The position numbers and the translations under genes are program-made. This document shows positions 2,115 through 62,572 of a DNA stretch of 64,000 nt, one piece after another (within the stretch, counting starts at the first letter, position 1; every line of letters starts with the position of its first letter). The notes beneath the pieces are model-generated. The model had not been told where the DNA came from and searched no databases. It saw nothing but the letters and a program-made list of their open reading frames with translations. This DNA is from an uncultured Gammaproteobacteria bacterium (GTDB taxonomy: Bacteria; Pseudomonadota; Gammaproteobacteria; Pseudomonadales; Halieaceae), in assembly GCA_963704965.1 (NCBI GenBank), contig CAVPIH010000018.1, forward strand, positions 57,684 to 121,683. The letters run 5' to 3'.

Positions 2115-2126
2115 GGCGGGGTGTCG

Positions 2127-3680: not shown

Positions 3681-3905
3681 GGCGATCTCTTTTTTTTGCT
3701 GGTGAGTTATCGGTCAATACCGGCTATTTTGTCCCAGGGGTACCTCGATACCGCGGCAGGCATCCTGCAGGGCGACTTTACCGGGGCGTCCATGTCGAGT
3801 CCAATGCTTCGCAACCGGTCTGGAAAGCCTCGGTGGGCCCGGTCGCCCATTCGCTGTCCACGGTTTGTTCCCGCCAACAGTAAACACATAGCAGGAGAGT
3901 ATCAG

Positions 3906-4694: not shown

Positions 4695-4700
4695 GGGAAC

Positions 4701-6912: not shown

Positions 6913-8094
6913 TCAGCCCACCACGCAGGTGAATTCCGCGTCGTTGAGTTGCGGGCAGAGCGTTCGTAGCGGCTTGCGCTGCTGTTCGTCCAGGGCGTCC
7001 CAGGACTGGCAGAGGTCCCGCCACACGGGTACCTGGAAACTTTTGACCACCGCGCGAAAAGGCTGGTCCATGAGGGTGCCGTCATACAGTGCCTGCCGCT
7101 GGTCGAAGGCCGCCTCGTTGAACAGGGTCTGCCCCCGCTCCACTGCTGCCCGGTACGCGCCGGTATTTTGTCGCATCAGGGGCACGAAGGTCTCTGCAAT
7201 AACCTTCAGTAGTGGACGCAAACTCTCATGCAGATACAGTTTTCCCGCGCTACCCTGGTGTCCGCCGTCGCGAATCATGCACAGCCACTGGAGGGTTCGT
7301 GGCGCCAGCTCTCCCAGCAGGCTGGCAGCGCGTCCGTCCACCAGGTTCATGGCGAGCTGGCCGTAGGCACTTGCATCGGCCAGGGTAAAATGTTCCCCAA
7401 GCAGATAGGGCTGCCGCTCCAGTACCGTTTCTATGGCCGCGAGGTATTGGCGCCACGCGTTGTCGAGAAGTTCGTGGGTCGGTGGAAAACCCGGTAGTGC
7501 CGGTGGCGTGAGTTCCCGGCTTACCCCGGCGTCAAATCCCAGCGGAGCCACGCTGAACAAGTAGGGGCAGCGCCGCACCTGGCGTTTTGCCAGGCTGCGG
7601 GCAACTCGCCGGTGCAGGCCCAAAGGAAACAGCTTGCGCATTTCCCGGCTGGTAAACTCGCCCATGCGGTTGGTTGCAGCGGAGATGACCCAGCGATTGT
7701 GGTGCACCATGTAAAGACCGAACTCGTCAAAGGCCTCATCGATAAGTTGGCACGCGAACCGCAGGCCCGGCTCAGGCGGCAACAGTCCCTGGGCGGCTGG
7801 CGTGAGTCGCAGCAGATGGTAGCCGAGTCCGCTGGAATCGTAGTAGAAGGTTTTACCGTCCAGCGTGTAAAAGGGTACAGAAGGGTATTCGTCCAGGCCG
7901 GCCACTCGCGAAGGCAGGCGTTCGATGGACTCGGTACGGATCGCCCGGCGCAATCGCCAGGCCATCCCCAGGGCTCGGGCGCTACTGAGCTGTTCCGGTG
8001 CGCGCTGCCAGGGGATGCCGGCGGCATTTGCCAATGCCTGCATCTTGAGCTGATAGGGAGAGGCCGTGACCCCCCAGAAGGTAATCTGTGGCAT
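6913..8094 (-). CDS. Long GST-like protein with a roughly 100-aa C-terminal extension (paralog 1 of 3)
   Basis: The N-terminus ITFWGVTASPYQLKMQALANAAGIPW looks like the thioredoxin-like GST_N fold with an SPY motif. QPYLLGEHFTLADASAYGQL looks like GST_C. The C-terminal tail is shared with the genes at 9803 and 22285. I prefer the ATG at 8094, which has AAGGGA 5 nt upstream. The track start at 8115 is a TTG. Confidence 0.7.
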   Translation of the reverse strand: MPQITFWGVTASPYQLKMQALANAAGIPWQRAPEQLSSARALGMAWRLRRAIRTESIERLPSRVAGLDEYPSVPFYTLDGKTFYYDSSGLGYHLLRLTPAAQGLLPPEPGLRFACQLIDEAFDEFGLYMVHHNRWVISAATNRMGEFTSREMRKLFPLGLHRRVARSLAKRQVRRCPYLFSVAPLGFDAGVSRELTPPALPGFPPTHELLDNAWRQYLAAIETVLERQPYLLGEHFTLADASAYGQLAMNLVDGRAASLLGELAPRTLQWLCMIRDGGHQGSAGKLYLHESLRPLLKVIAETFVPLMRQNTGAYRAAVERGQTLFNEAAFDQRQALYDGTLMDQPFRAVVKSFQVPVWRDLCQSWDALDEQQRKPLRTLCPQLNDAEFTCVVG

Positions 8095-8146: not shown

Positions 8147-8165
8147 ATGGCATAAATGCTGCCAT
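8147..8165. promoter_or_regulatory. Candidate operator palindrome ATGGCA-N7-TGCCAT (site 1 of 4)
   Basis: The sequence is ATGGCATAAATGCTGCCAT, with perfect 6-bp inverted arms and an AT-rich spacer. It lies in the divergent intergenic region between GST-like paralog 1 and the TetR gene. It matches site 2 at 16 of 19 positions. Confidence 0.6.
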
Positions 8166-8236: not shown

Positions 8237-8833
8237 GTGAACAAGAGCGCGCAGATAGAAATCACCGTCGTTCCGGACGGCAGGCGCCTGCGCAGCGAGC
8301 GCAGCAAGCAGGCCATCATCGACGCGTCCCTGGCGCTGATGGAGGAGGGCAACCTCATCCCCACGGCACAACAGATTTCCGACCGTTCGGGGGTGGGCAT
8401 TCGATCCTTTTTTCGTCACTTCGAGGATATGGAGAACCTGTTTGCCACCATCGAGCAACAGATTCGTGAGACGACTGAAGCGCTGTTTCTTGGGGGTGAT
8501 CGGGACGGGACTCTTGAAGAGCGCGTGCTGCACGCGGTAGAGCGTCGCGCGGCGGGCTACGAAGTGGAGCGGAATATGATTCTCTCCACGCTTGCCCAGT
8601 TGTGGCGCTCGGAAACCCTGCGCCGAAACTACGCCCGTTACCAGCGCGGCTTGCGCAAGGACCTGGACGATTGGCTGCCGGAACTGGCGCAATTGACAGG
8701 CAACCAGCGCGAGGCCGTGGACGCGCTGACCTCCTTCGAAATGTGGCACCGCCTGCGCTATCACCAGGGGCTTGGTAAGGCGGCGGCCATCGATGTTATC
8801 GTCGGCATGCTGAAAGCGCAGCTACAGGGATGA
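8237..8833 (+). CDS. TetR/AcrR-family transcriptional regulator
   Basis: 198-aa ORF with a GTG start. The N-terminal HTH is RSKQAIIDASLALMEEGNLIPTAQQISDRSGVGIRSFFRHFEDMENLF. It is a clear paralog of the TetR gene at 60936. Confidence 0.85.
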   Translation: MNKSAQIEITVVPDGRRLRSERSKQAIIDASLALMEEGNLIPTAQQISDRSGVGIRSFFRHFEDMENLFATIEQQIRETTEALFLGGDRDGTLEERVLHAVERRAAGYEVERNMILSTLAQLWRSETLRRNYARYQRGLRKDLDDWLPELAQLTGNQREAVDALTSFEMWHRLRYHQGLGKAAAIDVIVGMLKAQLQG

Positions 8834-8948
8834 GCGTTCTCAGGAATGAATAGCCCCCGGCGGTTCCTCGCCCTGTAATCCGTTTGCGTCCTCTGCCTGT
8901 CAGCCTGCTATGCAGGGCCGGCAAAGTTGCTTTCCCAGGAGATTGCCC

Positions 8949-9806
8949 ATGAAAAAGTTACTCACCATCGCCGTCGTGCTGTTCGCCCTGGTCGGGGCCT
9001 TGTTGCTATCACTGCCCACGATTTTGCACAGCGCCGGCCTGCACCCCGAATATGACGGACCATCGGTGGCTTTGCCTGGCAAGCGCGCCCTGATCATCAC
9101 TACCAGCCACGGAGTGCTGGCGGCGCCGGGACAAACCGGGGGCCCTGCCACCGGTGTGTTTGGTTCCGAGCTGACTCACCCCTACTACACTTTCCTGGAT
9201 GGTGGCATGGAAGTCGACGTGGCCAGTATCCGCGGTGGTTCAATACCCGTTGATCCCCAGAGCTTCCTGTTCATGATCAAGTCACCCGAGGACGAGCGTT
9301 ACCTCAACGACCCCGTAGCACAGGCCAGGGTGAAGAACTCCATTCCTATTGCCGAGGTGGATATCGACCAGTACGACATTGTGTTCATCTCGGGAGGCTG
9401 GGGGGCAGCCTATGACCTGGCGCAATCCCCCGAACTGGCGGCAAAGGTGAGCGCAGCCTATTACGGCCACAAGGAGGCGATTATCGGCGGTGTCTGCCAC
9501 GGCGTGCTGGGCCTGGTGAGCGCACGGGACCGGGACGGTGATCTGCTGATTGCCGGACGGCGCATGACCGGCGTGACCGACAAGCAGATCGGGGAACTTG
9601 ATATAGAAATCACGCCGCTGCACCCCGAAACGGAGCTGCGCAAGGCGGGCGCCGTGTTTGAGGCCCAGACGGCATTCAGGGACATTTTCGCCACCCATGT
9701 CGCGGTCGACGATGAGCAGCGCTTTGTTACCGGGCAGAACCAGAACTCCGGGCTGGAAACCGCGCACCTGATGATGCAACTTGTTGCGCAGAGGCAGCAG
9801 CAATGA
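8949..9806 (+). CDS. DJ-1/PfpI (type 1 glutamine amidotransferase-like) protein with an N-terminal signal or anchor
   Basis: ATG at 8949 gives MKKLLTIAVVLFALVGALLLSLP, a hydrophobic N-terminus. IFISGGWGAAYDL and the nucleophile elbow IIGGVCHGVLGL fit the family. The stop overlaps the next start (ATGA at 9803-9806). Confidence 0.7.
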   Translation: MKKLLTIAVVLFALVGALLLSLPTILHSAGLHPEYDGPSVALPGKRALIITTSHGVLAAPGQTGGPATGVFGSELTHPYYTFLDGGMEVDVASIRGGSIPVDPQSFLFMIKSPEDERYLNDPVAQARVKNSIPIAEVDIDQYDIVFISGGWGAAYDLAQSPELAAKVSAAYYGHKEAIIGGVCHGVLGLVSARDRDGDLLIAGRRMTGVTDKQIGELDIEITPLHPETELRKAGAVFEAQTAFRDIFATHVAVDDEQRFVTGQNQNSGLETAHLMMQLVAQRQQQ

Positions 9807-10936
9807 CTTCAAAGGATGTATACCGCCTATACGCCATCACCCACTCACTGTATTCCGGGCGGGCGCGTTCTTACCTGATCAAGCAGGGCATACCGTTCCG
9901 GGAGTTATCCACCGGGCATGAGAGCTTCAAGGCGGAGGTTCTGCCCCGGGGCAAGTTGCCGACCATACCGACCCTGGTGACCCCCTCGGGAGACGTGATT
10001 CGTGACGGTGCCGCCATTATCGAGCACTTCGAGGCGATCGGCGGCCGTCCCTGCCAGCCCACCGGGCCGCGCCAGCAGATCATCAGCGCGCTGTTTGACG
10101 TGATCGGGACCGACGGTCTGTTGCGTCCGGCCATGCACTATCGCTGGAATTTCCCCCAGGACAACCTCGACTTTATCCGCTACCACTTCCTCTATTCGCA
10201 GCGGGACCTGCCACAGCGGGAGCAAAAGACCGAGCAGATGATGGGCCGGATGCGCCACGCGGCGCAGCTGTTCGGTGTTACCGAACAATCGCAGGAACTG
10301 GTGGAGGGTCTGTACCTGGAATACCTCGATGCGCTCAACGCCCACTTCGAGCAATATCCCTACCTGCTGGGCTGGCGCCCGTGCATAGGGGACTTCGGCT
10401 TGCTGGCGCCCATGTATGCTCACCTGGGACGGGATCCTTATCCGGCGCGCTTGATGCAGCAGCGGGCGACCCGTGTTTATCGCTGGGTGGAGCGAATGAA
10501 CCGCGCCGACCAGGACGTGCCGGAGTATTTTGAGGCGGGTACGGACTTCCTGGGCGATGACGAGGTGCCGGCAACCCTGTTGGCGGTGCTGCGTGTGCTG
10601 GCGGAGGACTTTGTGCCGGAGACCCGGGCCGCCGCCGGGCGTATCAACGCCTGGCTGGCGGAGACGCAACCCGAGGCCGGGGTGTCGGCCGTGACGCGAC
10701 CCGGTAGCGGGCCCGGCAACGCCGAATTTTCCCTGCGCGGGCAGACCATCAGTGCCCTGGCCCAGCCCTATCGTTTTTACCTGTTGCAGCGGGTGCAGGC
10801 CATTTACACGGGCCTGGCTTCGCAAGACCGCGCGTTGGTGGATGACATGCTTGCCGCCTGCAATATGTCTGAGCTGCCAGACATCACGCTGGATCGACGG
10901 ATTGCCAGGGCAGACAATCTGGAAGTCTGGACTTGA
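9803..10936 (+). CDS. Long GST-like protein with a C-terminal extension (paralog 2 of 3)
   Basis: 377-aa ORF. YRLYAITHSLYSGRARSYLIKQGIPF looks like GST_N and YPYLLGWRPCIGDFGLLAPM like GST_C. The tail (LAEDFVPETR...YTGLASQDRALVDDMLAAC) is shared with paralogs 1 and 3. Confidence 0.7.
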   Translation: MTSKDVYRLYAITHSLYSGRARSYLIKQGIPFRELSTGHESFKAEVLPRGKLPTIPTLVTPSGDVIRDGAAIIEHFEAIGGRPCQPTGPRQQIISALFDVIGTDGLLRPAMHYRWNFPQDNLDFIRYHFLYSQRDLPQREQKTEQMMGRMRHAAQLFGVTEQSQELVEGLYLEYLDALNAHFEQYPYLLGWRPCIGDFGLLAPMYAHLGRDPYPARLMQQRATRVYRWVERMNRADQDVPEYFEAGTDFLGDDEVPATLLAVLRVLAEDFVPETRAAAGRINAWLAETQPEAGVSAVTRPGSGPGNAEFSLRGQTISALAQPYRFYLLQRVQAIYTGLASQDRALVDDMLAACNMSELPDITLDRRIARADNLEVWT

Positions 10937-10987
10937 TGCACGACCTGATTACCGCATACAGCGGCAACTGATATAGGGAGAAGTAAC

Positions 10988-12202
10988 ATGGGATTTGAAG
11001 TCAGCGAAAATGTTGTGGCGCTGAATGCCAAACTCGAGGCGTTTATGCGGGAGCATATCTACCCCCGGGAGCACGACTGGCAGGCGTTTACCCTGGACCA
11101 GGACAACCTTTGGCAAGTGCCACCGTGGTTTGACGGCTTGCGGGAGAAGGCCAGGGCCGCGGGACTTTGGAACCTGTTCCTGCCCCACGAGTACCAGCCC
11201 TGGAGCCCCGGCTTGACCAATGCCGAAATCGCCCCGCTGTTTGAAACCATGAGCAAGGTGATGTGGGCGCAAGCGGTGTTTAACTGCAACGCGCCGGATC
11301 GCGGCAATATGGAGGTGCTGGCAAAGTACGGCACGCCTGAACAGCAGAAGCGGTGGCTGGAGCCCCTGCTGGCGGGCGAGATTCGCTCGGCCTACGCCAT
11401 GACCGAACCCCAGGTGGCTTCGTCCGATGCCACCAATATGGAACTGGAGATCAAGCGCGACGGCGATGAGTACGTGCTCAACGGCCGCAAATGGTGGACC
11501 ACCAACGCCGTGGGCGGGCGCTGCAAGATCATGCTGGTGATGGGCTTGTCCAACCCCGATGCGGAGCGCCACCGCCGGCACTCCACCATTCTGGTGCCGC
11601 GCGATACCCCGGGAATTACGCTGGTGCGCCCCTTGCGGGTGTTTGATAATTTGCATTCGCCAGGCGGCGAAGCGGAGTTCCTGTTCGAGGATGTACGGGT
11701 ACCTGTTGGCAACATGATCAAGGGCGAGGGCTGCGGTTTCGAGATTGCGCAGGGCCGCCTCGGGCCGGGCCGTTTCCAGTATGCGATGACCCTGGTGGGT
11801 GCGGCGCAGCGCTGCCTGGAGTTGATGTGCGCACGCGCCGAGGAGCGCGTGGCATTCGGCGAGAAACTCAGCAAGAAAACCAGTGTCCAGCATGAGATCG
11901 CCCGCTGTCGTTGCGAGATCGAACAGTGTCGCCTGCTGGTCCTGCAGGCCGCGGAGGTGATGGACAAGCAGGGTATGAAGGCCGCCTTGCCCTACATCTC
12001 CATGGTCAAGATTGTCGCGCCGCAGATGGCGCAGAACGTGGCCGATCGCGCCATGCAGGTGTTCGGCGGTATGGGCGTCTGCCAGGACACACTAATCCCC
12101 GACGTGTTCACCCACGCGCGCTTCTGCCGTATCGCGGATGGCCCGGACGAGGTGCATATGTCGCAGCTGGCCAAGCTGACCATCCGCGACCTGGTGGGAT
12201 AA
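10988..12202 (+). CDS. Acyl-CoA dehydrogenase (FadE2/ACAD10-11-like)
   Basis: 404-aa ORF. The N-terminus LEAFMREHIYPRE...LWNLFLP is followed by YAMTEPQVASSDATNM and a C-terminal RFCRIADGPDEVH. GGGAGAAG lies upstream of the ATG. Confidence 0.85.
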   Translation: MGFEVSENVVALNAKLEAFMREHIYPREHDWQAFTLDQDNLWQVPPWFDGLREKARAAGLWNLFLPHEYQPWSPGLTNAEIAPLFETMSKVMWAQAVFNCNAPDRGNMEVLAKYGTPEQQKRWLEPLLAGEIRSAYAMTEPQVASSDATNMELEIKRDGDEYVLNGRKWWTTNAVGGRCKIMLVMGLSNPDAERHRRHSTILVPRDTPGITLVRPLRVFDNLHSPGGEAEFLFEDVRVPVGNMIKGEGCGFEIAQGRLGPGRFQYAMTLVGAAQRCLELMCARAEERVAFGEKLSKKTSVQHEIARCRCEIEQCRLLVLQAAEVMDKQGMKAALPYISMVKIVAPQMAQNVADRAMQVFGGMGVCQDTLIPDVFTHARFCRIADGPDEVHMSQLAKLTIRDLVG

Positions 12203-12205: not shown

Positions 12206-14407
12206 TCAGAAAACGTACCGCAGGGTTGCCCCGTAGGTGCGCGGTGCAGCCAGGAATTCTGCCTGCATGCCGGTCAGCAAAAAGGGTGCCGCCGACAGCG
12301 ACGAATAGGATTCGTCGGTGGCGTTCTTAACCCATAGGGACGCATCCCAGCTATCGTTGCGCCAGCCTAGGCGGGCGTTGACCAGTTCCCGGTTCTGCTC
12401 GGTGTCCGGGGGCTGGTAGGTTGCATTGGTGTAGTGATCACCCATGAAGCTGTAGTCGGCGCGCAGGTAAGTCATGCCCCCGGCGAGAGGCAGGAGCAAG
12501 GTGGCGGCAATATTGCCACTCCAGTCCGGGGCGAAAACGACGTCGAACCGCTCCAGTTCCCCCTCGGTGTATTTAGCGTCCAGGTACTGCAGGCCGCCGT
12601 CCAGGATCAGGTTGGGGAGTGGCATGGCCGTAAATCCCAGGTCGACCCCTTCGATTTCAGCCCTGGCGGCGTTGCTTACGAAGGTGCCGGCACCGATTGG
12701 CTTCTGGGCTAAAAACTGCAGATCGTCGAACTCAGAGTAAAATGCCGTGGCGTTCAGTTTGAGCCGGTTTTCGAACAGCTCTGTTTTCACCCCCAATTCG
12801 TAGTTGGTGGTTTTCTCTTCCTCGAACTCGAGTTGGGGGTCACCCGGGTTGTTGAATCCCGGTGACTTGGTGCCCGTGGCCACAGAGGCGAACAACATGG
12901 TGTCGTCGCCGAGGAAGTAGCGCAGATTTGCCAGCCAGGTGAATCCGTCCTTCTCCAGGTCTTCGTTGCCGGCGCCGGGCGCGGCGATCAGATCGACGAA
13001 AGTGGGCACTCCTGGAATATTCGCGGCCGGTGCCGTGGAGACGTTTTCTACATACCCATCCACCGTCTTCTCCTCGGCGGTATAGCGCAGGCCCAGGGTC
13101 AGCAGCCACTCATCGGTAAAGCTGTAGGTAGTCTGGCCGAAGGCGGCATAGACATCGGTTTCGTAGTTGGCCTTGGCGGTAATGTAGTCACCGGGTGCAG
13201 CCAATACCGCCAACTGTGGCCCGAAAGTGACGGTGCCGACCGAGAGGATATCCTCGCCCAGGATGGTGAAGGGTTCAGGGTTGTCCCGCTTGTTTTCCTC
13301 GTGCAGGTAGTAGAGTCCGGCCAGATACTGCAGGGGGCCGTCCAGATCGCTGCTGAGGCGGAACTCCTGGGACCAGGCACTGCCCGAGAAGGTGTCGTTG
13401 ACAAAGTAGAGAATGTCGAACTGGGACCGGTCGGCGTCCGCTGAGGACTTGTAATCATATTCGTTCCAGGCAGTGAGAGAAGTCAGTTGCGCCCGGTCCA
13501 TATCGTAGTCGACGTTCAGGATCACCATATCTGACGTCATGGTGAATTCACTGCTCCGGTCGGCGTTGTTTTTCCAGTCCCAGGCATCGTTTTTGGGTAC
13601 CGGCAAATCGTTTTCCGCCAACAGGGCCAGCAGGGTTTCCGTCTGCAGTGCGTCCGCCGCGCAGCAGCGGTCATCGCGGTCGACGTGGCTTGCCGTCAGC
13701 ATAATGCTCCAGGCATCGGTCGGCAGCCACTGTATCTTCCCCCGCAGATTCCAGTCCTGCGCCGACATCTGGTCCGGGCCAGTTCCGTTCTCCAACCAAC
13801 CATCCTGCTCGCGCCAGTTGCCTGCCATCCGGTAGGCGAGTTCGTCATTGACCGGACCTGTCACCGACGCGGTGTACTGCTGCAGGCCGTAGTCGCCCAC
13901 CGTTCCCTCCAGGTAACCTTCGACTTCCTCGAAATTCGGGTTGCTGGTTACGACGCTGACGACACCGGCGTTGGAGTTCTTGCCGTACAGAGTGCCCTGG
14001 GGGCCCTGCAGTACCTCGACGCGCTCGATATCCGTCAGGTCTGACATACCCAGGCCGGAGCGCCCCATGTAGACCCCGTCGACCACAAAGGCAACCGACG
14101 CCTCCAGGGCGATGGAATTCTGGGAGGTGCCGATACCGCGAATACGTATGCCAGTGGCAAACGGACTGAGATTAGTGGTGGTGGTCAGTGACGGCACCAG
14201 CTGTGCCACGTCGGCCAGGTCGACGACGCCGGCGGCCTGCAGGGTCTCTGCAGTGACCGCGTTCACCGTGACCGGAATGTCCTGCAGGCTCTCCGCCCGT
14301 TTGGTTGCCGTCACTACTACCTCTTCGAGGGCGCCGGTCAGGCCCAGCGCGGCGGAAGCATAAATTGTCAGGGCGATGGCAGACGCAAGCGGCTTGATGT
14401 TCCGCAT
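12206..14407 (-). CDS. TonB-dependent outer-membrane receptor
   Basis: 733-aa ORF with a signal peptide (MRNIKPLASAIALTIYASAALG) and a TonB-box/plug region (EEVVVTATKRAESLQDIPVTVNAV). The C-terminal beta-barrel ends in TYGATLRYVF. GGAG lies 9 nt before the ATG. Confidence 0.9.
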   Translation of the reverse strand: MRNIKPLASAIALTIYASAALGLTGALEEVVVTATKRAESLQDIPVTVNAVTAETLQAAGVVDLADVAQLVPSLTTTTNLSPFATGIRIRGIGTSQNSIALEASVAFVVDGVYMGRSGLGMSDLTDIERVEVLQGPQGTLYGKNSNAGVVSVVTSNPNFEEVEGYLEGTVGDYGLQQYTASVTGPVNDELAYRMAGNWREQDGWLENGTGPDQMSAQDWNLRGKIQWLPTDAWSIMLTASHVDRDDRCCAADALQTETLLALLAENDLPVPKNDAWDWKNNADRSSEFTMTSDMVILNVDYDMDRAQLTSLTAWNEYDYKSSADADRSQFDILYFVNDTFSGSAWSQEFRLSSDLDGPLQYLAGLYYLHEENKRDNPEPFTILGEDILSVGTVTFGPQLAVLAAPGDYITAKANYETDVYAAFGQTTYSFTDEWLLTLGLRYTAEEKTVDGYVENVSTAPAANIPGVPTFVDLIAAPGAGNEDLEKDGFTWLANLRYFLGDDTMLFASVATGTKSPGFNNPGDPQLEFEEEKTTNYELGVKTELFENRLKLNATAFYSEFDDLQFLAQKPIGAGTFVSNAARAEIEGVDLGFTAMPLPNLILDGGLQYLDAKYTEGELERFDVVFAPDWSGNIAATLLLPLAGGMTYLRADYSFMGDHYTNATYQPPDTEQNRELVNARLGWRNDSWDASLWVKNATDESYSSLSAAPFLLTGMQAEFLAAPRTYGATLRYVF

Positions 14408-14438: not shown

Positions 14439-14457
14439 ATGGCATAAACTGTGCCAT
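14439..14457. promoter_or_regulatory. Candidate operator palindrome ATGGCA-N7-TGCCAT (site 2 of 4)
   Basis: The sequence is ATGGCATAAACTGTGCCAT. It lies 31 nt upstream of the TonB-dependent receptor ATG, in the divergent region shared with the gene at 14614. An extra ATGGCA half-site is at 14464-14469. Confidence 0.6.
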
Positions 14458-14613
14458 AATGTAATGGCAGAGACTATGTTAATATAATCGTTTTTGCAAG
14501 CGTCTTCGATTGCGCATGGGCTTTGATTCAACCTCGGCGAGGCGGGCTCCGGTCTTTCCCGCGGGGATCATTGGCCGGTCCTCAGGACATTCAGGCAGAG
14601 GGAACACAGAAGC

Positions 14614-15336: not shown

Positions 15337-15978
15337 TCAGCCCAGGCCCAGTGCTTTCGCCTCTTTCTGCAGCACCGCCGCTACCTGCGGCATTGCCTTC
15401 ACCCGGGCGATCAGTCCCGCGAGACGTGGCCAGCGCGATGGGTCTACCTCGTAGCCGGCATAGGAGGCGTTGTAGAAGGGCGAGGCGATGCTCAGGTCCG
15501 CCATGGTGAAGTCGCCGAAAACGAAGCCTTCTGCCGGCACCTGGCCTTCCAGGTAGTCCAGCATCGGCGGCAGGCGCTTGTCGATGATATTGGCAACCAG
15601 CTCCTCGTCGGGCTCCTGCTTGAAGGCGAAGGGGCGCATAAAGCGCTGGAAGAAAATGCCTGCAGCCATTTCGGCAACGGCGCCGCCACACAGGTCCTCG
15701 TACCAGTCCGCCATCGCCCGCTGGGCGGTATCCCGCGGATACAGGGCCGGCTCCGGGTAGGCGCTTTCGATATACCGGCAAATCACCTTGGAGTCGCCTA
15801 GCGTCAGGTCACCGTCCACCAGGGTGGGTATCTTGCCCAGCGGGTTGATCTTGAGGTATTCCTTGTCGCCGGAAAACGGCATCTGGGGGATTGTTTCGTA
15901 GGGGATATTCTTGATATCCAGCGCGATGAAAACCTTGCGCACGAAGGGAGACCCGTGCACACCGTATACCTTGATCAT
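15337..15978 (-). CDS. Glutathione S-transferase (canonical, about 213 aa)
   Basis: The internal ATG at 15978 gives MIKVYGVHGSPFVRKVFIALDIKNIPYE...INPLGKIPTLVDG, the GST_N fold with a catalytic Ser-Pro-Phe. The longer track ORF (to 16245) overlaps the upstream gene and is unlikely. Confidence 0.85.
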   Translation of the reverse strand: MIKVYGVHGSPFVRKVFIALDIKNIPYETIPQMPFSGDKEYLKINPLGKIPTLVDGDLTLGDSKVICRYIESAYPEPALYPRDTAQRAMADWYEDLCGGAVAEMAAGIFFQRFMRPFAFKQEPDEELVANIIDKRLPPMLDYLEGQVPAEGFVFGDFTMADLSIASPFYNASYAGYEVDPSRWPRLAGLIARVKAMPQVAAVLQKEAKALGLG

Positions 15979-15980
15979 TG

Positions 15981-16643
15981 TTACTGCTCCTTGGCGCTTG
16001 CGCTCGCTGCCTGCGATAGTTTTGCCGACATCTTCCAGCCGTCTACCAGTGCGGTCAATGCCAGCAGTATCAAGCCCAGCAGCAGCCTGGGGTCGCCCAG
16101 GTAGAGACTGGGCTCTATCGGGTAGGCGATAGTCTTGTCCAGCGCCGCGAGCTTGAAGTGGTGGGGACCCAGTATAGCGGGATTGCTGATGATCTCCATA
16201 AGTGCGCGCCGGCTGCGGTAGCGGAACAGGGCGGCGCTGGTCCACTGCTCGGCGCCCTCGATGCCGCTGATGTCGATTGCCGGATACACCGCGGGCCCCA
16301 TGATGACAGGGTGACAGGCGCGTTTGAGCAGTTCCGGGATCATGTGCTCCATGTACAGGCCCATCAGGGTATCGGCATCGGCGTTCGCCGGGGCGCCCTC
16401 CACGGCGGGGGGATTTTCATTCATATCGAGGTTGTTGACCATCAGGAACTGGCGACCGGTGTCCTGGCGCAGGAATTGGGCGTAAAACTCGATCTTCTCC
16501 GGGTTGGCGCCATTGCCAGTCATCACCTCGATGAAATGGTCGACCTCCGCATTGCTCAGGGGGCCCCTGAAATCGGTGTACCAGAACACGAAAGCGGCGT
16601 AGAGCAGGGCGGGGAACAGCCAGAGTTTCATGCGTGGTGACAT
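15981..16643 (-). CDS. Hypothetical membrane protein (N- and C-terminal TM helices, central alpha/beta domain)
   Basis: ATG at 16643 gives MSPRMKLWLFPALLYAAFVFWY. The C-terminal TM is LLLGLILLALTALV. The central part vaguely resembles DUF1330/dimeric alpha-beta-barrel proteins, which is a weak impression only. The stop lies 2 nt before the GST start. Confidence 0.5.
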   Translation of the reverse strand: MSPRMKLWLFPALLYAAFVFWYTDFRGPLSNAEVDHFIEVMTGNGANPEKIEFYAQFLRQDTGRQFLMVNNLDMNENPPAVEGAPANADADTLMGLYMEHMIPELLKRACHPVIMGPAVYPAIDISGIEGAEQWTSAALFRYRSRRALMEIISNPAILGPHHFKLAALDKTIAYPIEPSLYLGDPRLLLGLILLALTALVDGWKMSAKLSQAASASAKEQ

Positions 16644-16739
16644 GGGAGTTTCCCGTGCTGGTGTGGTAACGCCTTGCACTACCGCCAGGGCGTGTACAAG
16701 GGCTTCCAGATAATGAATCTGCTGCACGCAGCCTTACAT

Positions 16740-16760
16740 ATTGACAGCCTGTATGTCAAT
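16740..16760. promoter_or_regulatory. Perfect inverted repeat ATTGACA-N7-TGTCAAT
   Basis: The sequence is ATTGACAGCCTGTATGTCAAT, with 7-bp perfect arms and a 7-nt spacer. It lies between the BVMO stop (16788) and the start of the downstream membrane-protein gene (16643). The arms are AT-rich, so it looks more like an operator or promoter element than a terminator. Confidence 0.4.
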
Positions 16761-19951: not shown

Positions 19952-21022
19952 CTACAGCCCTTCGCGGGTGAGAATGATCTCGTCGGAACCGGCGGGTAGT
20001 GAAAAGCTCACGCCGTCCTGGCCAATGGTGTAGTTCGGGAAGATCTCCCCGGCACCATCCAGGTACAGGATATCCTGGCCGGGAAACACCAGCGGCGGCA
20101 CGATGTGGTAGTACAGCAGGTGGCCGACGCCGGCATCCCGGGCGGTCTCCGCGGCTTCAACAGGGCTGGCGTGGTAGGTCAGGATATCGTCGGTGATCTG
20201 CGCCATGATCGGGTTGCCGCTTTGCGCGGCGGCGGCGTGCATCATCCCCACCAGGTTCGGGGCCAGCGCCTCGTGCACCAGCAGGTCCACGCCCTGGGCG
20301 AATTTTTCGATATTGGCGAGCTTGACCGTGTCCCCGGTTATCAGCAGGGAGCGGTCCTTGTAAGTGAAGCGATAGCCCACCGCGGGCTCCACGGGGGAGT
20401 GGTCCACCGCCAGCGCCTCCACAGTCAGGTCGCCAGTGCTGTAAAGGGTGACCAGTTCCCCGGCGCCGGGCTTGGTGAAACTCTTCGCCACCATGCCGGC
20501 GCCGCTCAGCGGGGCCACGCTGTCGCCGTGGTGGGCGTGGCGATAGTCGGCATCGAAGGCGTAGGCGGTATTGAATCCGTCCACGACCTGCTGGACACCC
20601 TCCGGCCCGTAGACGGGCAGGGGGCTGGTGTGGGCGCCGCTGGCCCAGCGAATCGTGGCAGTCTCACCGAGGCCGTCGATATGATCGGAATGGAAGTGGG
20701 TGAGAAACACCGCCTCGATATCCGCCGGCTGGTATCCCATCCTGGAAATATTGCGCACGCCGTCTGTGCCGGCGTCCACCACGAACATCTGCTTCCCGGC
20801 CACTACCACCACGCAGGGGCCGGAGGCGTTGGGCGCCGGCATCGGGCCGCCGGCGCCACACAGGGCCAGGTGCAGTCCGTCCTCCAGGGTGTCGATCATG
20901 TTCGCGCCCATGCGGGCCTCCAGGCCCTTCTCCATAACCCTGGTGACTATGGTTGCGCGCTGGCTATAGGCCAGCAGCCCGATGGCAATTATCGCCAGGG
21001 CGATGAGGAGTGTTTTTTTCAT
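19952..21022 (-). CDS. MBL-fold metallo-hydrolase (RNase Z/arylsulfatase-like), membrane-anchored or secreted
   Basis: 356-aa ORF. The N-terminal hydrophobic segment is MKKTLLIALAIIAIGLLAY. The metal motif is FLTHFHSDHIDGL (HxHxDH), followed by a later HEAL...YHASP. Confidence 0.8.
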   Translation of the reverse strand: MKKTLLIALAIIAIGLLAYSQRATIVTRVMEKGLEARMGANMIDTLEDGLHLALCGAGGPMPAPNASGPCVVVVAGKQMFVVDAGTDGVRNISRMGYQPADIEAVFLTHFHSDHIDGLGETATIRWASGAHTSPLPVYGPEGVQQVVDGFNTAYAFDADYRHAHHGDSVAPLSGAGMVAKSFTKPGAGELVTLYSTGDLTVEALAVDHSPVEPAVGYRFTYKDRSLLITGDTVKLANIEKFAQGVDLLVHEALAPNLVGMMHAAAAQSGNPIMAQITDDILTYHASPVEAAETARDAGVGHLLYYHIVPPLVFPGQDILYLDGAGEIFPNYTIGQDGVSFSLPAGSDEIILTREGL

Positions 21023-21037: not shown

Positions 21038-21056
21038 ATGGCACATATGATGCCAA
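21038..21056. promoter_or_regulatory. Candidate operator palindrome ATGGCA-N7-TGCCAA (site 3 of 4)
   Basis: The sequence is ATGGCACATATGATGCCAA, with one mismatch at the outermost arm position. It begins 16 nt upstream of the MBL-fold gene ATG, in the divergent region shared with the dehalogenase-like gene. Confidence 0.5.
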
Positions 21057-21245: not shown

Positions 21246-22241
21246 GTGGAATTCAAACGCACACCCGAGGAAAGATTTGCCGAGCTTGCGGATTACTCCT
21301 TCGCTCCCCACTACCTGCAGGTGAGTGATACGGAGGGTGGGCAGCTGCGAATTCACTACCTGGACGAAGGTCCACCCACTGGCGACGTGGTGCTGTTGCT
21401 GCACGGCCAGCCTGCCTGGAGCTACCTCTATCGCCACATGATTCCGCTGCTGGTGGCGCGAGGCTTCCGTGTCCTGGCGCCCGACCTGGTGGGCTTCGGT
21501 CGTTCCGACAAGCCCACCCGGATGCAGGATTACACCTACGCACGACATATCACCTGGATGAGTGAGTGGCTCACCGCCCTGGACCTGAAGGGCATTACCG
21601 TGTTCTTCCAGGACTGGGGCAGCCTGATCGGGCTGCGCCTGGTGACGGCCTTCCCGGAACGCTTTGCCAGGGTGGTACTGGCCAATGGTGGTCTGCCCGC
21701 GGGCACCATCCCGGCGCAACACACGGACGCCCTGAAACAGGCCTACGAGACCCTGCCGGTGGTGCCGGCAAGGGAATTGAATGCGCGCTTTCGGGACCGC
21801 AGCGGCATTCCCGGCTTCCTGTACTGGCGCAAATTCTGCGCCGCCAGCCCCGACCTGGACATTGGCAGCCTGATGGCGGCGGTCTCGGCCAGGCCGCTGT
21901 CAGCCGCGGAAATAGCCGCCTACTCGGCGCCCTTTCCCGACCAGAGCTATATGGCGGGGGCGCGCCAGTTCCCCAGCCTGGTGCCGGTGTTTCACGATGA
22001 ACCGGAAGTGGAGGAGAACAAGGCGGCCTGGGAAGTGCTGCGCCGCTTTGACAAGCCGTTCATGCTGGCATTTGCGGACGGCGATCCGGTGACGGCTGGC
22101 GGCGACAAGAAATTTATCGCCGAAGTGCCCGGCTGCGAGGGCATTGCCCACCGCACAATCAAGGACGCAGGCCACTTCCTGCAACAGGACCAGCCCGGGC
22201 AATGCGTACAGGCGATCCTGGACATCTGCGGCCGGGCTTGA
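21246..22241 (+). CDS. Haloalkane-dehalogenase-like alpha/beta hydrolase (HLD-I-like)
   Basis: 331-aa ORF with a GTG start. Motifs are RIHYLDEGP, LLLHGQPAWSYLYRHMIP, DLVGFGRSDKP, the nucleophile motif FFQDWGSLIGL (Asp) and a C-terminal DAGHFLQQDQP (His). Confidence 0.75.
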   Translation: MEFKRTPEERFAELADYSFAPHYLQVSDTEGGQLRIHYLDEGPPTGDVVLLLHGQPAWSYLYRHMIPLLVARGFRVLAPDLVGFGRSDKPTRMQDYTYARHITWMSEWLTALDLKGITVFFQDWGSLIGLRLVTAFPERFARVVLANGGLPAGTIPAQHTDALKQAYETLPVVPARELNARFRDRSGIPGFLYWRKFCAASPDLDIGSLMAAVSARPLSAAEIAAYSAPFPDQSYMAGARQFPSLVPVFHDEPEVEENKAAWEVLRRFDKPFMLAFADGDPVTAGGDKKFIAEVPGCEGIAHRTIKDAGHFLQQDQPGQCVQAILDICGRA

Positions 22242-22284
22242 ATGGCACAGGCCGACAACTGAACTTCGATGCGGAGGTGCGCGC

Positions 22285-23328
22285 GTGTTAACAGACGACT
22301 GTATTCGACTGGTGGGTAATACCGGCTCGCCCTATACACAGAAAATGGTGGCGCTGCTGCGCTACCGGCGGGTGCCCTATGCCATTACCTGGGGCGAACC
22401 GGGCGCGGTCTGCGATGCCCTGGGGGTGCAAAGGCCCAGGCCGGTTTTCATGCCCACTTTTTTCTTCCCTGGTGACGGTGGTGAAATGCAGGCGGTGTGC
22501 GACTCCACCCCGATCATTCGCCGCCTCGAGGAAATGTATCCGGAACGTTCCGTCCTGCCCGGGGACCCGGCCCTGGCCTTCATCGACTACCTGATAGAGG
22601 ACTTCGCCGACGAGTGGTGCACCAAGTACATGTTTCACTACCGCTGGTACCCCGCGCAGGATGCCGACAACGCGGGCACGCTGCTGCCACTGGGCCTGGA
22701 TGTGAGCATGCCCGCTGAGCAGTTGCAGGAAGCCAAACACTGGTTTTCCCAGCGCCAGATCGGGCGCCTCTACGTGGTGGGATCCAACGACACCACCGCA
22801 CCGGTGATCGATGCCAGCTACCGGCGTTTCCTGGCTGCCATGGAGAGCCACCTGGCCAGCCAGAAGTTCACGCTGGGCGGCCGCCCCGGGGCGGGTGATT
22901 TCGGCCTGCACGGCCAGCTGACCCAACTGGTGGGATTCGACCCCACGCCGCGGGCCATCGCCCACGAGGTTTCGCCCCGCACGGTCGCCTGGGTCGATCG
23001 CATGCGGGACCAGAGCGGCCTGGAACCGCAGGACAGCGACTGGGTGGCGCTGGAAGACCAGCCGGACAGCCTGCGCGGGCTGCTCACGGAAATTGGCCGG
23101 GTCTACGCGCCCGCGCAGCTTGCCAACGCCAGGGCGGTACAGGCGGGGGAGAAAACCTGGGAGTGCGAGATCGACGGTGCCACCTGGACCCAGCAGACCT
23201 TCCCCTACCAGGCCAAGTGCCTGCGGTGGACCAACGAACGCTACCGGGCGCTGGGCGCGCAGGATCGTGCCCGTGTGGACGCACTGCTCGCGGGCACGGG
23301 CACAGAGGATATGTTGTTGCAGTCCTGA
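22285..23328 (+). CDS. Long GST-like protein with a C-terminal extension (paralog 3 of 3)
   Basis: The GTG at 22285 gives VLTDDCIRLVGNTGSPYTQKMVALLRYRRVPY, the same SPY..K motif as paralog 1. GGRPGAGDFGLHGQL looks like GST_C. The tail is YRALGAQDRARVDALLAGT. The longer track ORF from 22144 overlaps the previous gene. Confidence 0.7.
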   Translation: MLTDDCIRLVGNTGSPYTQKMVALLRYRRVPYAITWGEPGAVCDALGVQRPRPVFMPTFFFPGDGGEMQAVCDSTPIIRRLEEMYPERSVLPGDPALAFIDYLIEDFADEWCTKYMFHYRWYPAQDADNAGTLLPLGLDVSMPAEQLQEAKHWFSQRQIGRLYVVGSNDTTAPVIDASYRRFLAAMESHLASQKFTLGGRPGAGDFGLHGQLTQLVGFDPTPRAIAHEVSPRTVAWVDRMRDQSGLEPQDSDWVALEDQPDSLRGLLTEIGRVYAPAQLANARAVQAGEKTWECEIDGATWTQQTFPYQAKCLRWTNERYRALGAQDRARVDALLAGTGTEDMLLQS

Positions 23329-32496: not shown

Positions 32497-32574
32497 TTCC
32501 CTTTCATTCCCGCTGCACCAACCACGGTTCCAGTCTGGTAAAGTGTGGAGCAGTTCCCCCCCGAGAGCAACGCC

Positions 32575-33693: not shown

Positions 33694-33696
33694 GCC

Positions 33697-51733: not shown

Positions 51734-51752
51734 ATGGCATTATAAGTGCCAT
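51734..51752. promoter_or_regulatory. Candidate operator palindrome ATGGCA-N7-TGCCAT (site 4 of 4)
   Basis: The sequence is ATGGCATTATAAGTGCCAT with perfect arms. It lies in the 328-bp region between the LysR gene and the DUF2855-like gene, and ends 113 nt upstream of the ATG at 51865. Confidence 0.5.
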
Positions 51753-51864
51753 TATATTCAGCCGGTGCTACAATTCGGCGGGCTGGTGCCAGCGTCCGGG
51801 GAACAACCGGCGTGGGCGGGGCAGGAAAATGATAGCCGGGCACTGCGCGCGGCGGGAGCAAGCA

Positions 51865-52950
51865 ATGACACAGTGTACGGAATTATGGGTGGACCGTGCC
51901 GACCCTCGCAGGACCCGGGTCGTTACCCGGCCCCTGCCTGTGCCGGGGCAGGGCGAGGTGCTGGTAGCCATCGACAAGTTCGGCCTCACCTCCAACAACG
52001 TCAGCTATGCGGTCACCGGGGACCTGATCGGTTACTGGGGCTTTTACCCCGCCGAGGAACACTGGGGCAAGGTGCCCGTGTGGGGCTGCGCCGAGGTGGT
52101 GGCCTCCGGCTGTGACCAGGTGCCGGTGGGCGAGCGCCTGTGGGGTTTCTTTCCCATGGCCAGCCACGCAATCCTGCAGCCGGGCAAGGTGCGCGAAGAC
52201 CAGTTTGTCGATGTCGCCGCGCACCGCCAGGCGCTGCCCGCCCTGTACAATGGCTACCGCCGCACCCGGGCTGAACCGGCCTTTCTGCAGGACATGGAAG
52301 TGGAACGCTGCCTGTTGTTTCCGCTGCTGGCCACCTCCTGGTTGATCTACGATTTCCTGGTGGACAACGACTTCTTTGGCGCCGGCCAGGTGCTCATCGG
52401 CTCGGTGTCCTCCAAGACCGGTGCGGGCCTGGCGGAGATGTTGCACGCCGACCCCCAGGTCAGCCAGCGCGTTATCGGCCTCACTTCGCCGGGCAATGTG
52501 GCCTATGTGGAGCGGTTGGGCTGCTGCGACGAGGTGGTGGTCTACGGCCAGGAGCAGCGCATCGATGCCGCGGTGCCGGCGGCTTACGTGGATATGTCGG
52601 GTGATGCGCGGCTGACCACGACCTTGCACCAGCTGTTGGGGACCAATATGGTGAACAGCGCCATGGTGGGCGCCACCCACTGGGAGCAGCGCGGCGAGAC
52701 CGGCGACCTGCCCGGCGCCAAACCCACTTTCTTCTTTGCCCCGGCGCAGATCGGCAAGCGCGATGCCCAGTGGGGGCCGGGTGCCGCGATGGCCAAAGCC
52801 ATGGCGGCCAGCGCCCAGGTGGCGCAGAAGTGGCAGGGTGAGTTGGCGGTGGAATGGACCCGCGACGTGGACGGGCTCGCCGCATTGTGGCGGCAGTTGC
52901 TGGACAACGAAATTGCCCCCTCCCGCGGCCTGATGGTCTCGCTGCTGTAA
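51865..52950 (+). CDS. DUF2855-like protein (MDR/zinc-independent dehydrogenase-like fold)
   Basis: The ATG at 51865 gives MTQCTELWVDRADPRRTRVVTRPLPVPGQGEVLVAIDKFGLTSNNVSYAVTGDLIGYWGFYP. This resembles what I recall of the DUF2855 family. VLIGSVSSKTGAGLA is a Rossmann-like segment. Confidence 0.55.
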   Translation: MTQCTELWVDRADPRRTRVVTRPLPVPGQGEVLVAIDKFGLTSNNVSYAVTGDLIGYWGFYPAEEHWGKVPVWGCAEVVASGCDQVPVGERLWGFFPMASHAILQPGKVREDQFVDVAAHRQALPALYNGYRRTRAEPAFLQDMEVERCLLFPLLATSWLIYDFLVDNDFFGAGQVLIGSVSSKTGAGLAEMLHADPQVSQRVIGLTSPGNVAYVERLGCCDEVVVYGQEQRIDAAVPAAYVDMSGDARLTTTLHQLLGTNMVNSAMVGATHWEQRGETGDLPGAKPTFFFAPAQIGKRDAQWGPGAAMAKAMAASAQVAQKWQGELAVEWTRDVDGLAALWRQLLDNEIAPSRGLMVSLL

Positions 52951-53013
52951 CAGCGGGTCCCGGTGCGAGGCGAGCCTGGGTTGCTACCCCTGCACAGAAC
53001 CGCCGAGGTATAA

Positions 53014-54705
53014 ATGAAAAAGCTGATCTCCCTGTTACTCGTGCTGGCCATAGGCGCCGCACTGGCCTGGCACAACCGCGTCAACATCCTGGTGTGGGGC
53101 CTGCCCATTGTCAGTTCCGTGCTGCGCCCGGTGGGGCCGAATGTGCCGGTCAACTGGCCCCAGGGCCCCGCCACCAGCGAGCAGGCACCCGCGCAGCGGC
53201 CGCCCAATATCATCCTGATCCTGGCCGATGACATGGGGTTCAACGATGTGTCGCTGTACAACGGCGGCGCCGCCGACGGCAGCCTGATGACACCCCATAT
53301 CGATGCCATCGCCCGCCAGGGTGTGGTCTTCGAGAACGGCTATGCGGCCAACGCGGTCTGCGCCCCGTCCCGGGCCGCGTTGATGACCGGTCGCTACTCC
53401 ACCCGCTTCGGTTTCGAGTACACACCGTTTTTCAAGATCGGGCCCACCATATTCCAGTGGATGAGCGATCTGGACCCGCCGCCGCTGCCGATATTCATCG
53501 ATCGCGAGGAAGCGGCCCGGATGCCGGAAATCACCGAGCTGGGGATGCCGCCGGGTGAAATAACGGTGGCCGAGGTACTGCAGCAGGCGGGCTATTACAC
53601 CGCCCATATCGGCAAGTGGCACCTGGGCTCGGTGGGCGACATGGTGCCCGAGCGACAGGGCTTTGACGACAGCCTGAATCTCGCCGGCACCCTGTTCCTG
53701 CCGGAGGATGACCCGGACGTGGTGAACGCCAAACGCGAACAGGATTACGTCGACCAGATGGTGTGGGCGACGGCCCGCTACGCGGCGAATTTCAATGGCA
53801 GCGAGCCCTTTGCGCCGGACGGGTACCTGACGGACTACTACACCGACGAAGCCGTCAAGGTGATAGAGGCCAACCGCAACCGGCCCTTCTTCCTCTACCT
53901 GGCGCACTGGGCGGTGCACAATCCGCTGCAGGCGAAGCGCGAGGACTATGACGCCTTCCCGCATATTGCAGACCACACCCTGCGGGTATACGCCGGCATG
54001 ATACGCGCCCTGGACCGCAGCGTGGGGCGGGTACTGCAGGCGCTCGAGGACCACGGCCTGAGTGACAACACCCTGGTGATTTTCACCAGCGACAACGGCG
54101 GCGCGGGCTATATCGGCCTGCCGGATATCAACAGGCCTTATCGCGGCTGGAAACTGAATCACTTCGAGGGCGGCACCCACGTGCCCTTCATGGCGCGCTG
54201 GCCCGCGCGCATCCAGCCCGGCAGCGTGCTGGCGGCGCCGGTGCACCATGTGGATGTATTCCACACCGCGGCCGCCGCCGCCGGGGCCCAGGTGCCCACA
54301 GACCGCAAACTGGACGGGGTCGACCTGCTGCCCTTTGTGACCGGTGAGCGCGATGGCCTGCCCCACGATGGCGTGCCCCACGACACCCTGTTCTGGCGCG
54401 AGGGCTACCAGCAGACGGTGCTGCACGACGGCTGGAAGCTGATCCGCGCCGACCAGCCCGACCAACCACCGGGAACCGGCCAGAAGAAATGGTTGTTCGA
54501 CCTGGGTGCCGATCCCACCGAACAGCACAACCTGGCGGCGCAGTTTCCCGAGCGGGTGGCGGCCCTGGAAGCCCTGTTGGCGGCGCACAACGCCGAGCAG
54601 GCCGAGCCCCTGTGGCCCAGCGTGATCCAGTCGCCCCAGCGTATCGACAAAACCGGTATCGAACCCTATGCGGAAGATGATGAGTATATTTACTGGCCGA
54701 ACTAG
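53014..54705 (+). CDS. Cys-type sulfatase (arylsulfatase family), membrane-anchored or secreted
   Basis: 563-aa ORF. The N-terminal hydrophobic segment is MKKLISLLLVLAIGAALAW. ILADDMGFNDVS and the formylglycine motif CAPSRAALMTGR are present, followed by later GKWHLG and TSDNGG motifs. Confidence 0.9.
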   Translation: MKKLISLLLVLAIGAALAWHNRVNILVWGLPIVSSVLRPVGPNVPVNWPQGPATSEQAPAQRPPNIILILADDMGFNDVSLYNGGAADGSLMTPHIDAIARQGVVFENGYAANAVCAPSRAALMTGRYSTRFGFEYTPFFKIGPTIFQWMSDLDPPPLPIFIDREEAARMPEITELGMPPGEITVAEVLQQAGYYTAHIGKWHLGSVGDMVPERQGFDDSLNLAGTLFLPEDDPDVVNAKREQDYVDQMVWATARYAANFNGSEPFAPDGYLTDYYTDEAVKVIEANRNRPFFLYLAHWAVHNPLQAKREDYDAFPHIADHTLRVYAGMIRALDRSVGRVLQALEDHGLSDNTLVIFTSDNGGAGYIGLPDINRPYRGWKLNHFEGGTHVPFMARWPARIQPGSVLAAPVHHVDVFHTAAAAAGAQVPTDRKLDGVDLLPFVTGERDGLPHDGVPHDTLFWREGYQQTVLHDGWKLIRADQPDQPPGTGQKKWLFDLGADPTEQHNLAAQFPERVAALEALLAAHNAEQAEPLWPSVIQSPQRIDKTGIEPYAEDDEYIYWPN

Positions 54706-60927: not shown

Positions 60928-60935
60928 CAGGTGTT

Positions 60936-62533: not shown

Positions 62534-62572
62534 GGCCGACCGCACCAACCAACTTTAAGGGAGATTGAAGCG

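Follow-up and report, generated by a model that had tools for sequence, protein, structure and literature searches.

Which protein, if any, reads the inverted repeat ATGGCA-N7-TGCCAT, and which genes are governed through it, are the questions raised by the 64-kb stretch of DNA analysed here (the window). A sequence-only reading had listed four copies of this 19-bp palindrome and suggested that the copy in front of a TetR-family gene might be the operator of an autoregulated repressor. The window belongs to a member of the Halieaceae (OM60/NOR5), a family that is abundant in coastal waters and reacts to phytoplankton blooms (PMC10100682); a literature search found no report of transcriptional regulation in the Halieaceae.

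Sequence sets and gene calling

Two sets of loci were compared with the window. The first consists of 80 loci around TetR homologues in species-representative genomes (L001-L080, 1.40 Mb) and the second of 74 metagenome loci around DUF2855 relatives (L081-L154, 0.58 Mb), the latter chosen independently of the TetR gene. Since the 80-locus set was selected via the TetR gene, the association between motif and TetR is partly built into it, a bias that is only partly offset by the asymmetry of the site density described below and by the metagenome loci selected on DUF2855. Coding and non-coding sequence were separated with a codon-usage gene caller; an earlier GC3-based caller had placed 30 of 129 sites inside genes, which was an artefact of over-long open reading frames (1 of 221 sites with the codon-usage caller). 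Families of potential targets were obtained by clustering the genes that read away from sites, and the counts given for them are of genes, in 7-52 different loci.

Definition of the motif

All four palindromes of the sequence-only reading are present at their positions, with sites 1 and 2 (2a in Table 1) identical at 16 of 19 positions, and site 1 ends 72 bp upstream of the GTG start codon at 8237, in line with the distance of about 70 bp first given. Three of the four had been described as lying between divergent genes, whereas all four do, site 4 being flanked by the minus-strand LysR gene and the plus-strand DUF2855 gene. The recurrence also held up against shuffled sequence: near-perfect copies (at most one mismatch) occur four times in the 64-kb window, compared with a mean of 0.23 in dinucleotide shuffles of it, and none of 100 such shuffles reached four. 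Relaxing the search to two mismatches, as had been proposed for a wider survey, gave no enrichment of the bare core in the window (51 observed versus 52 expected), which indicates that the signal is confined to near-perfect sites and that these form a distinct class. The four-site pattern itself is real but was drawn too narrowly. It forms one part of a wider motif with the consensus ATAATGRCATAAWTTATGYCATTAT, and the family-wide form, TGRCA-N7-TGYCA with AT-rich flanks, gives six sites in the window.

In the window and L001-L080 combined, TGGCA and TGCCA are separated by a 7-bp spacer in 42 cases, against 1-9 at the other spacers between 4 and 10 bp, and the pentamers most enriched after TGGCA-N7 are TGCCA and TGTCA. 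The four R/Y combinations of TGRCA-N7-TGYCA account for 42, 30, 26 and 31 sites (129 in total), and all of them prefer the 7-bp spacer. Family-wide, 46% of half-sites are TGACA and 54% are TGGCA, and the 31 sites of the form TGACA-N7-TGTCA have the same spacing and flanks as the others. The half-site ATGNCAT is itself almost palindromic; its central bases follow an R...Y arrangement in 129 sites, a Y...R arrangement in 23 and a direct arrangement in 45. Positions between about -6 and +24, conserved AT-rich flanks included, exceed the background in information content, which falls to the background level beyond these limits.

A 25-bp PWM refined on the loci (consensus ATAATGGCATAAATTATGCCATTAT) produced a bimodal distribution of scores over the 80 loci and the window, with 207 sites at 20 bits or more and few at 9-18 bits. 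At a threshold of 16 bits, 221 sites were found in the 80 TetR loci and the window, of which 220 are located in 350 kb of non-coding sequence and one in 1.1 Mb of coding sequence; shuffled non-coding segments contained 0.75 hits on average. Both this ratio of intergenic to coding sites and the conservation of the motif across the family, as seen by footprinting upstream of orthologues, are comparisons that the sequence-only reading had called for, and both favour an operator.

The centres of the sites mostly lie 10-120 bp from a start codon, and the distances are tight within individual target families (43-48 bp for TetR, 57-63 bp for MBL-fold hydrolases and 62-66 bp for DJ-1). Tandem pairs of strong sites spaced exactly 25 bp apart occur 21 times, including the window's own pair and, for example, that at 19591/19616 in L044, and place four half-sites in a 12-13-12 bp rhythm. 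Three direct 12-bp repeats of ATAATGTCATAA were observed in L022.

Sites in the window

The PWM scan of the window returned six sites (Table 1) with scores of 22.6-32.9 bits, the next best position scoring 8.3. All six are intergenic and lie in AT-rich gaps of a window with a G+C content of about 63%. Five lie on the downstream side of the TetR gene, no more than 13 kb from its start, and the sixth is at 51.7 kb. The left flank of the 16742 site, ttacata, is also found at sites in L015, L017, L019, L025, L026 and L040-L042.

A 35-codon ATG open reading frame is present in the GC-rich segment 51639-51746 that separates the LysR gene from site 4, and its TAA stop codon falls inside the putative operator (ATGGCATTATAA); this frame may be a chance occurrence or a gene remnant. 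The sequence at 50591-50607, TGGAATTAAAATTGCAA, has the GG-N10-GC spacing of sigma-54 promoters and is probably a chance match, since it runs into the LysR gene at its 3' end.

Table 1. Candidate operator sites and genes of the window; the PWM position is that reported by the scan.
Feature	Coordinates	PWM position; score (bits)	Strand	Sequence	Context and basis
Site 1	8147..8165	8148; 26.2		ATGGCATAAATGCTGCCAT	Between GST-like (-) and TetR (+) genes; exact match
Site 2a	14439..14457	14440; 32.9 (best in window)		ATGGCATAAACTGTGCCAT	32 bp upstream of TonB-dependent receptor start; divergent from hypothetical gene
Site 2b	14464..14482 (core 14465-14481)	14465; 23.1		Core TGGCAGAGACTATGTTA	Weaker tandem partner, 25 bp from site 2a
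16742 site	16741..16759 (core 16742-16758)	16742; 22.6		Core TGACAGCCTGTATGTCA	Upstream of minus-strand hypothetical-GST operon
Site 3	21038..21056	21039; 26.9		ATGGCACATATGATGCCAA	Between MBL-fold hydrolase (-) and alpha/beta hydrolase (+) genes
Site 4	51734..51752	51735; 30.1		ATGGCATTATAAGTGCCAT	Between LysR (-) and DUF2855 (+) genes
GST-like, ~393 aa; proposed target	6913..8094		-		Divergent from TetR gene; Pfam GST_C; orthologues adjoin sites in 10 loci
TetR-family regulator; proposed binder	8237..8833		+		Pfam TetR_N; recognition helix VGIRSFFRHF; no cysteine
DJ-1/PfpI-like, GST-like, acyl-CoA dehydrogenase	8910..12202		+		Downstream of TetR gene; Pfam
TonB-dependent receptor; proposed target of sites 2a and 2b	12206..14407		-		Pfam Plug and beta-barrel; sites in 29 loci
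Hypothetical protein and GST (213 aa); proposed operon under the 16742 site	15337..16727		-		Pfam; orthologues of the hypothetical protein adjoin sites in 7 loci
MBL-fold hydrolase; proposed target	19952..21022		-		Pfam Lactamase_B; orthologues with sites in 29 loci
Alpha/beta hydrolase, then GST-like; proposed target operon	21246..23328		+		Pfam; hydrolase orthologues with sites in 19 loci
DUF2855, then sulfatase; proposed targets of site 4	51829..54705		+		Pfam
Apparent TetR2 operon	59833-64000				SMP-30/arylesterase-like, TetR2, nitronate monooxygenase, FadB-like

Genes adjacent to the sites

The site-adjacent genes of the window belong to families that recur beside sites in other loci. These families are TetR (52 genes), MBL-fold hydrolase and TonB-dependent receptor (29 each), GST-like proteins of ~346 aa and nitronate monooxygenase (NMO; 20 each), alpha/beta hydrolase (19), DJ-1/PfpI (14, with a site of its own in 14 loci), GST-like proteins of ~393 aa (10), a hypothetical protein of ~207 aa (8), enoyl-CoA hydratase (7) and sulfatase (6), and PhyH and acyl-CoA dehydrogenase families are also present. 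TetR is the sole regulator family among them. Within the window, the genes at 8910..12202, which follow the TetR gene on its strand, likely form an operon, and the N-terminus of the MBL-fold hydrolase resembles a signal peptide by eye.

Of the 58 DUF2855 relatives listed from the metagenome loci, about 14, from close as well as distant lineages, are preceded by a site at a distance of 60-146 bp. In L108, a distant lineage whose DUF2855 protein is 59% identical, the cluster comprises an alkenal-reductase-like MDR oxidoreductase, DUF2855, DJ-1, a sulfatase, a GST-like protein, an alpha/beta hydrolase and a TonB receptor, with sites before the oxidoreductase, the hydrolase and the receptor (a pair 72 bp apart in the last case). 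An IS240-family DDE transposase gene (L108 8104-8808) adjoins the site at 8910 at the edge of this regulon cluster.

As its theme, the regulon would link uptake at the outer membrane to the detoxification or catabolism of compounds that are hydrophobic or electrophilic; a tie to phytoplankton lipids or oxylipins is speculation.

Other features of the gene content may be recorded here. The window contains at least five GST-like genes (6913-8094, 9803-10936, 15337-15978, 22285-23328 and 49549-50505), three of which encode unusually long proteins (~350-400 aa), and long GST-like paralogues are among the commonest motif targets in other genomes. Three acyl-CoA ligase (AMP-binding) and two enoyl-CoA hydratase genes flank the cluster (486-5516 and 57917-59620) and are siteless, as is a Baeyer-Villiger/FMO-like monooxygenase gene (16788-18308) that lies inside the cluster and is divergent from an AraC regulator gene (18434-19519). 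Two further blocks have no site. One (23617-27502) encodes an ABC transporter together with an auxiliary protein of the GldG-like type (969 aa), and the other (32545-36840) holds two genes (382 and 1047 aa) whose sizes are like those of an RND efflux pump.

The TetR protein and its association with the motif

The product of 8237-8833 matches Pfam PF00440 with 25.5 bits against a cut-off of 24 and has more than 100 homologues at 75-98% identity, the named ones being from Halioglobus, Haliea and Seongchinamella. Its AF2 model (pLDDT 85) shows the TetR fold and consists of helices only (10 by DSSP). The top PDB matches of this model in Foldseek are all TetR-family proteins with generic folds, DesT, PvrA, FasR and FadR among them, and a PDB sequence search gave weak matches to the helix-turn-helix region only. 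The DNA-binding segment PTAQQ...GVGIRSxFRHF is invariant in the orthologues, and a more distant lineage retains it in a homologue with 37% identity whose gene adjoins sites.

A strong site is located within 250 bp upstream of the TetR gene in 58 of 81 loci (the 80 loci and the window), and in a further eight a site precedes a two-gene operon that ends in the TetR gene. The TetR gene or its operon is therefore preceded by a site in 66 of the 78 assessable loci (three of the 81 are not assessable), a result which argues for the autoregulatory operator first suggested from the sequence; against this reading, 12 of the 78 TetR homologues have no upstream site, and neither has the second TetR gene of the window. 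The kilobase that precedes the TetR gene has a density of 7.9 sites per 10 kb. The 11 kb that begin at the TetR start (the downstream side) have 0.6-2.7 per 10 kb and the stretch between -10 and -3 kb has ~0.1 per 10 kb, so that sites are ~10-25 times denser downstream of the gene than 3-10 kb upstream of it. In an alignment of 12 TetR upstream regions, which covers the orthologue of site 1, the only invariant columns are those of TG.CA...TG.CA. The divergent gap between the GST-like and TetR genes measures ~80 bp in total in several genomes, with the motif occupying about one third of it. Cultured relatives in which the motif is present include Seongchinamella unica GH4-78 (L006), Parahaliea maris (L028) and Pseudohalioglobus sediminis (L058).

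In L145, a 53%-identical TetR homologue is divergent from DUF2855, with TGTCA-N7-TGTCA between the two genes. Several genomes are represented by two TetR loci each; both members have an upstream site in the pairs L010/L036 and L015/L068, and only L039 has one in the pair L039/L052. Two loci labelled as Paracoccaceae and Alphaproteobacteria MAGs (L061 and L075) carry the 8237-8833 TetR gene, which reflects either mis-binned contigs or horizontal transfer; tandem motif sites are found upstream of the TetR gene in L075, and L061 has motif sites at 7667 and 7699 and none upstream of its better-matching TetR copy.

These comparisons suggest, with a probability that we put at roughly 0.7, that the palindrome is the operator of a TetR subfamily specific to the Halieaceae and close relatives, represented by 8237-8833, which would regulate its own gene as well as several operons.

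A second TetR gene of the window (TetR2, 60936-61583) encodes a protein that is 60% identical to the first and has nearly the same recognition helix (VGIRTLFRHF). TetR2 may share the operators of the first protein or compete for them. The PWM scan found no site upstream of the TetR2 operon at 59.8 kb (best score -0.6 bits). A different inverted repeat, TGTCAC-N22-GTGACA, is present at 59763-59796 in the gap upstream of this operon and could be a separate operator. The NMO genes in 20 other loci do carry the motif, unlike the NMO gene of the TetR2 operon.

Alternative explanations

The motif could also be bound by a different regulator encoded elsewhere, a global factor, with the TetR gene and its neighbours being conserved members of its regulon. 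Such a factor would account for sites that are common away from TetR, as in the 580 kb of DUF2855-selected loci, where 35 strong sites were found and only three loci contain TetR homologues, and as in L108, which has its cluster of sites with no TetR gene within 21 kb. The motif may also bear a loose resemblance to the 7-1-7 or 8-1-8 AT-rich palindromes of the Fur/Zur or PadR/AphA families. However, the TetR promoter is precisely where sites are densest, their density is strongly asymmetric around the gene, no second regulator family recurs beside the sites, and the TetR recognition helix is conserved along with the motif down to 37% protein identity. For a factor of the metal type, the GST, DJ-1, hydrolase and acyl-CoA enzyme content of the regulon is also unlike that of a metal regulon. 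We regard a global factor as unlikely.

It is still more improbable that the palindrome is a bidirectional promoter element read directly by RNA polymerase, with either its halves (each TGYCA followed by WTATAW) resembling extended -10 elements read outward or its AT-rich flanks serving as -10 boxes. A scan for canonical sigma-70 promoters around the original four sites found none at sites 1-3 and predicted one only at site 4, where the right half, GTGCCA, is the predicted -35 (GTGCCA-17-TACAAT). The short intergenic regions of sites 1-3, which have no other canonical promoter, would fit a promoter element, as would the many sites between divergent genes, the flanks that are TATAAT-like in ~15% of sites at each of the offsets -6, -4 and +19, and the left half that is TTGACA-like in 38% of sites. 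Sigma-70 elements nevertheless have neither an invariant C and A like those of TGRCA nor a strict spacing of 7 bp, no single hexamer offset dominates, the 12-13 bp between the -35-like half and the flank hexamer are too short for sigma-70, and tandem pairs at exactly 25 bp better fit arrays of protein-binding sites. A search of the oriented sites for a fixed -10/-35 offset likewise revealed no dominant geometry.

A sigma-54 (-24/-12) promoter of the TGGCAC-N5-TTGC type, for which the original four sites provide TGGCA-N8-TGC and a GG-N10-GC spacing that fits on both strands, is effectively ruled out by the TGACA/TGTCA variants (TGACA makes up 46% of half-sites, and the 31 TGACA-N7-TGTCA sites contain no GG or GC on either strand), the base after GC being C rather than the consensus A or T and no enhancer-binding protein being found among the genes scanned against Pfam. 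A structural element in the form of an RNA hairpin, a DNA cruciform or a small REP/MITE-like repeat has an equally slight chance of being correct: the palindromes fold modestly as RNA (-5.5 to -9 kcal/mol), but the arms of 148 distinct sites vary independently without covariation (pairing and covariation scores were matched by 157 and 107 of 500 shuffles, and G/T and A/C arm combinations occur at chance frequency), conservation ends at ~29 bp instead of extending as in a repeat, and the sites lie at orthologous positions upstream, not downstream, of orthologous genes, with no terminator-like T runs around the original four. An Rfam scan of the window at gathering thresholds gave no match.

Proposed mechanism

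The symmetry of the motif, combined with the lack of arm covariation, is consistent with a putative site for a dimeric protein. In the TetR-operator reading, a TetR dimer, or possibly two, would bind two ATGRCAT half-sites with centres 12 bp apart. For one TetR dimer this is a wide separation, a point against the reading, and the conserved footprint of ~25-29 bp makes two dimers possible. The sites lie in very short AT-rich promoter regions, where bound TetR would block RNA polymerase, and binding at its own promoter would lead to autoregulation. The shared motif would place neighbouring and some distant operons under one switch, through which GST-like, DJ-1/PfpI, acyl-CoA dehydrogenase, MBL-fold hydrolase, alpha/beta hydrolase, TonB-dependent receptor, NMO, DUF2855 and sulfatase genes would be controlled, the receptor through the tandem operator pair 25 bp apart.

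The repressor would be released by a small ligand of hydrophobic character, which may be an acyl-CoA or an electrophile derived from lipids. The structural matches of the model to DesT, PvrA, FasR and FadR give a weak hint of an acyl-CoA-type ligand class, and the absence of cysteine from the TetR protein makes a NemR-type thiol switch unlikely. Since the scan for canonical sigma-70 promoters gave none at sites 1-3, it is only the position of the sites that suggests repression by occlusion, and activation or dual regulation may take its place. The identity of the binder, repression rather than activation, and the ligand are what we infer.

A wider proposal, which we consider possible though doubtful, is that the palindrome may be the shared operator of an expanded set of paralogous TetR proteins. 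The genomes with two TetR loci and the recognition helix kept down to 37% identity point in this direction. The resulting family-wide network would have ~50-200 sites per genome and would couple TonB-dependent uptake to the detoxification or catabolism of phytoplankton-derived lipids or electrophiles by GST, DJ-1, alkenal-reductase-like and hydrolase enzymes, in a clade that ranks among the most abundant of coastal bacteria.

Significance

As a type of mechanism, a TetR repressor that acts on a palindromic operator is already known and is textbook material. What is new is the operator and its regulon, previously undescribed, in an understudied and ecologically important family. Directly observed are the motif and its conservation, the placement of its sites between genes and their link to the TetR gene, and in the window the family-wide operator PWM leaves a gap of more than 14 bits between sites and background. 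The outcome is a candidate regulator with a conserved target set that includes the uncharacterised DUF2855, two hypothetical families and the long GST-like proteins; common membership in the regulon suggests a shared physiological role for these uncharacterised genes.

Comparison with known systems

The sequence-only reading had found no known operator consensus for the palindrome, and the same conclusion is reached here: a literature search for motif strings gave no match, and the PvrA, PA3973 and tetO sequences all differ from it. QacR binds a 28-bp palindrome (IR1) as two dimers, a length similar to that of the footprint observed here. The HrtR operator, ATGACACAGTGTCAT, has the half-site ATGACA in common with the present motif, but its half-sites are 3 bp apart rather than 7 bp. 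Neither protein is among the sequence matches of the TetR protein, QacR being a generic fold match only.

The Tn10 TetR/tetO system resembles the present one in having a palindromic operator in a short gap between the regulator gene and a divergent target, a regulator with the TetR_N helix-turn-helix and the TetR fold, and tandem operator pairs, tetO consisting of two 15-bp operators 11 bp apart (PMC9736018) and the pairs described here being spaced 25 bp centre to centre. It differs in that the sequence of tetO, TCTATCATTGATAGG, is unrelated to the present motif, in which half-sites 12 bp apart are combined with conserved AT-rich flanks in a footprint of ~25-29 bp. The scale and nature of the targets are also different, with many operators distributed over several operons here compared with a single efflux gene, and with GSTs, hydrolases and a TonB receptor as proposed targets in place of the drug pump of Tn10. 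The proposed system would thus operate as the Tn10 tetR/tetA switch does, only spread over several operons.

The acyl-CoA-responsive TetR proteins (DesT, PvrA, FasR and the FadR proteins of Bacillus and Thermus) are among the best structural and weak sequence matches. They resemble the present regulator in having multi-site regulons, which here include acyl-CoA dehydrogenase and enoyl-CoA hydratase genes, with acyl-CoA ligase genes nearby. The Foldseek identities are, however, only 16-20% (DesT, PvrA, FadR and SaFadR) or 11-16% (FasR), with E values of ~1e-4 to 2e-3, and the regulon described here consists mainly of GST-like, DJ-1 and hydrolase genes and not of the beta-oxidation core. PvrA recognises CGGTCA/TGACCG (PMC10085694), and its CGGTCA motif does not match the palindrome. 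It is in the style of the regulon that the present system would resemble the lipid-responsive TetR regulators, PvrA, DesT and PA3973 among them.

PA3973 of Pseudomonas aeruginosa is an autoregulated TetR protein with a large regulon that includes an acyl-CoA dehydrogenase, and its promoter contains two closely spaced palindromes; the palindrome reads TGAATCCGGATTCA, and the motif from ChIP is SAAGRNMTGAACG (PMC9736018). Both of these motifs are unrelated to ATGRCAT-N5-ATGYCAT, whereas autoregulation, as proposed here, and an acyl-CoA dehydrogenase target are features that the two systems would have in common.
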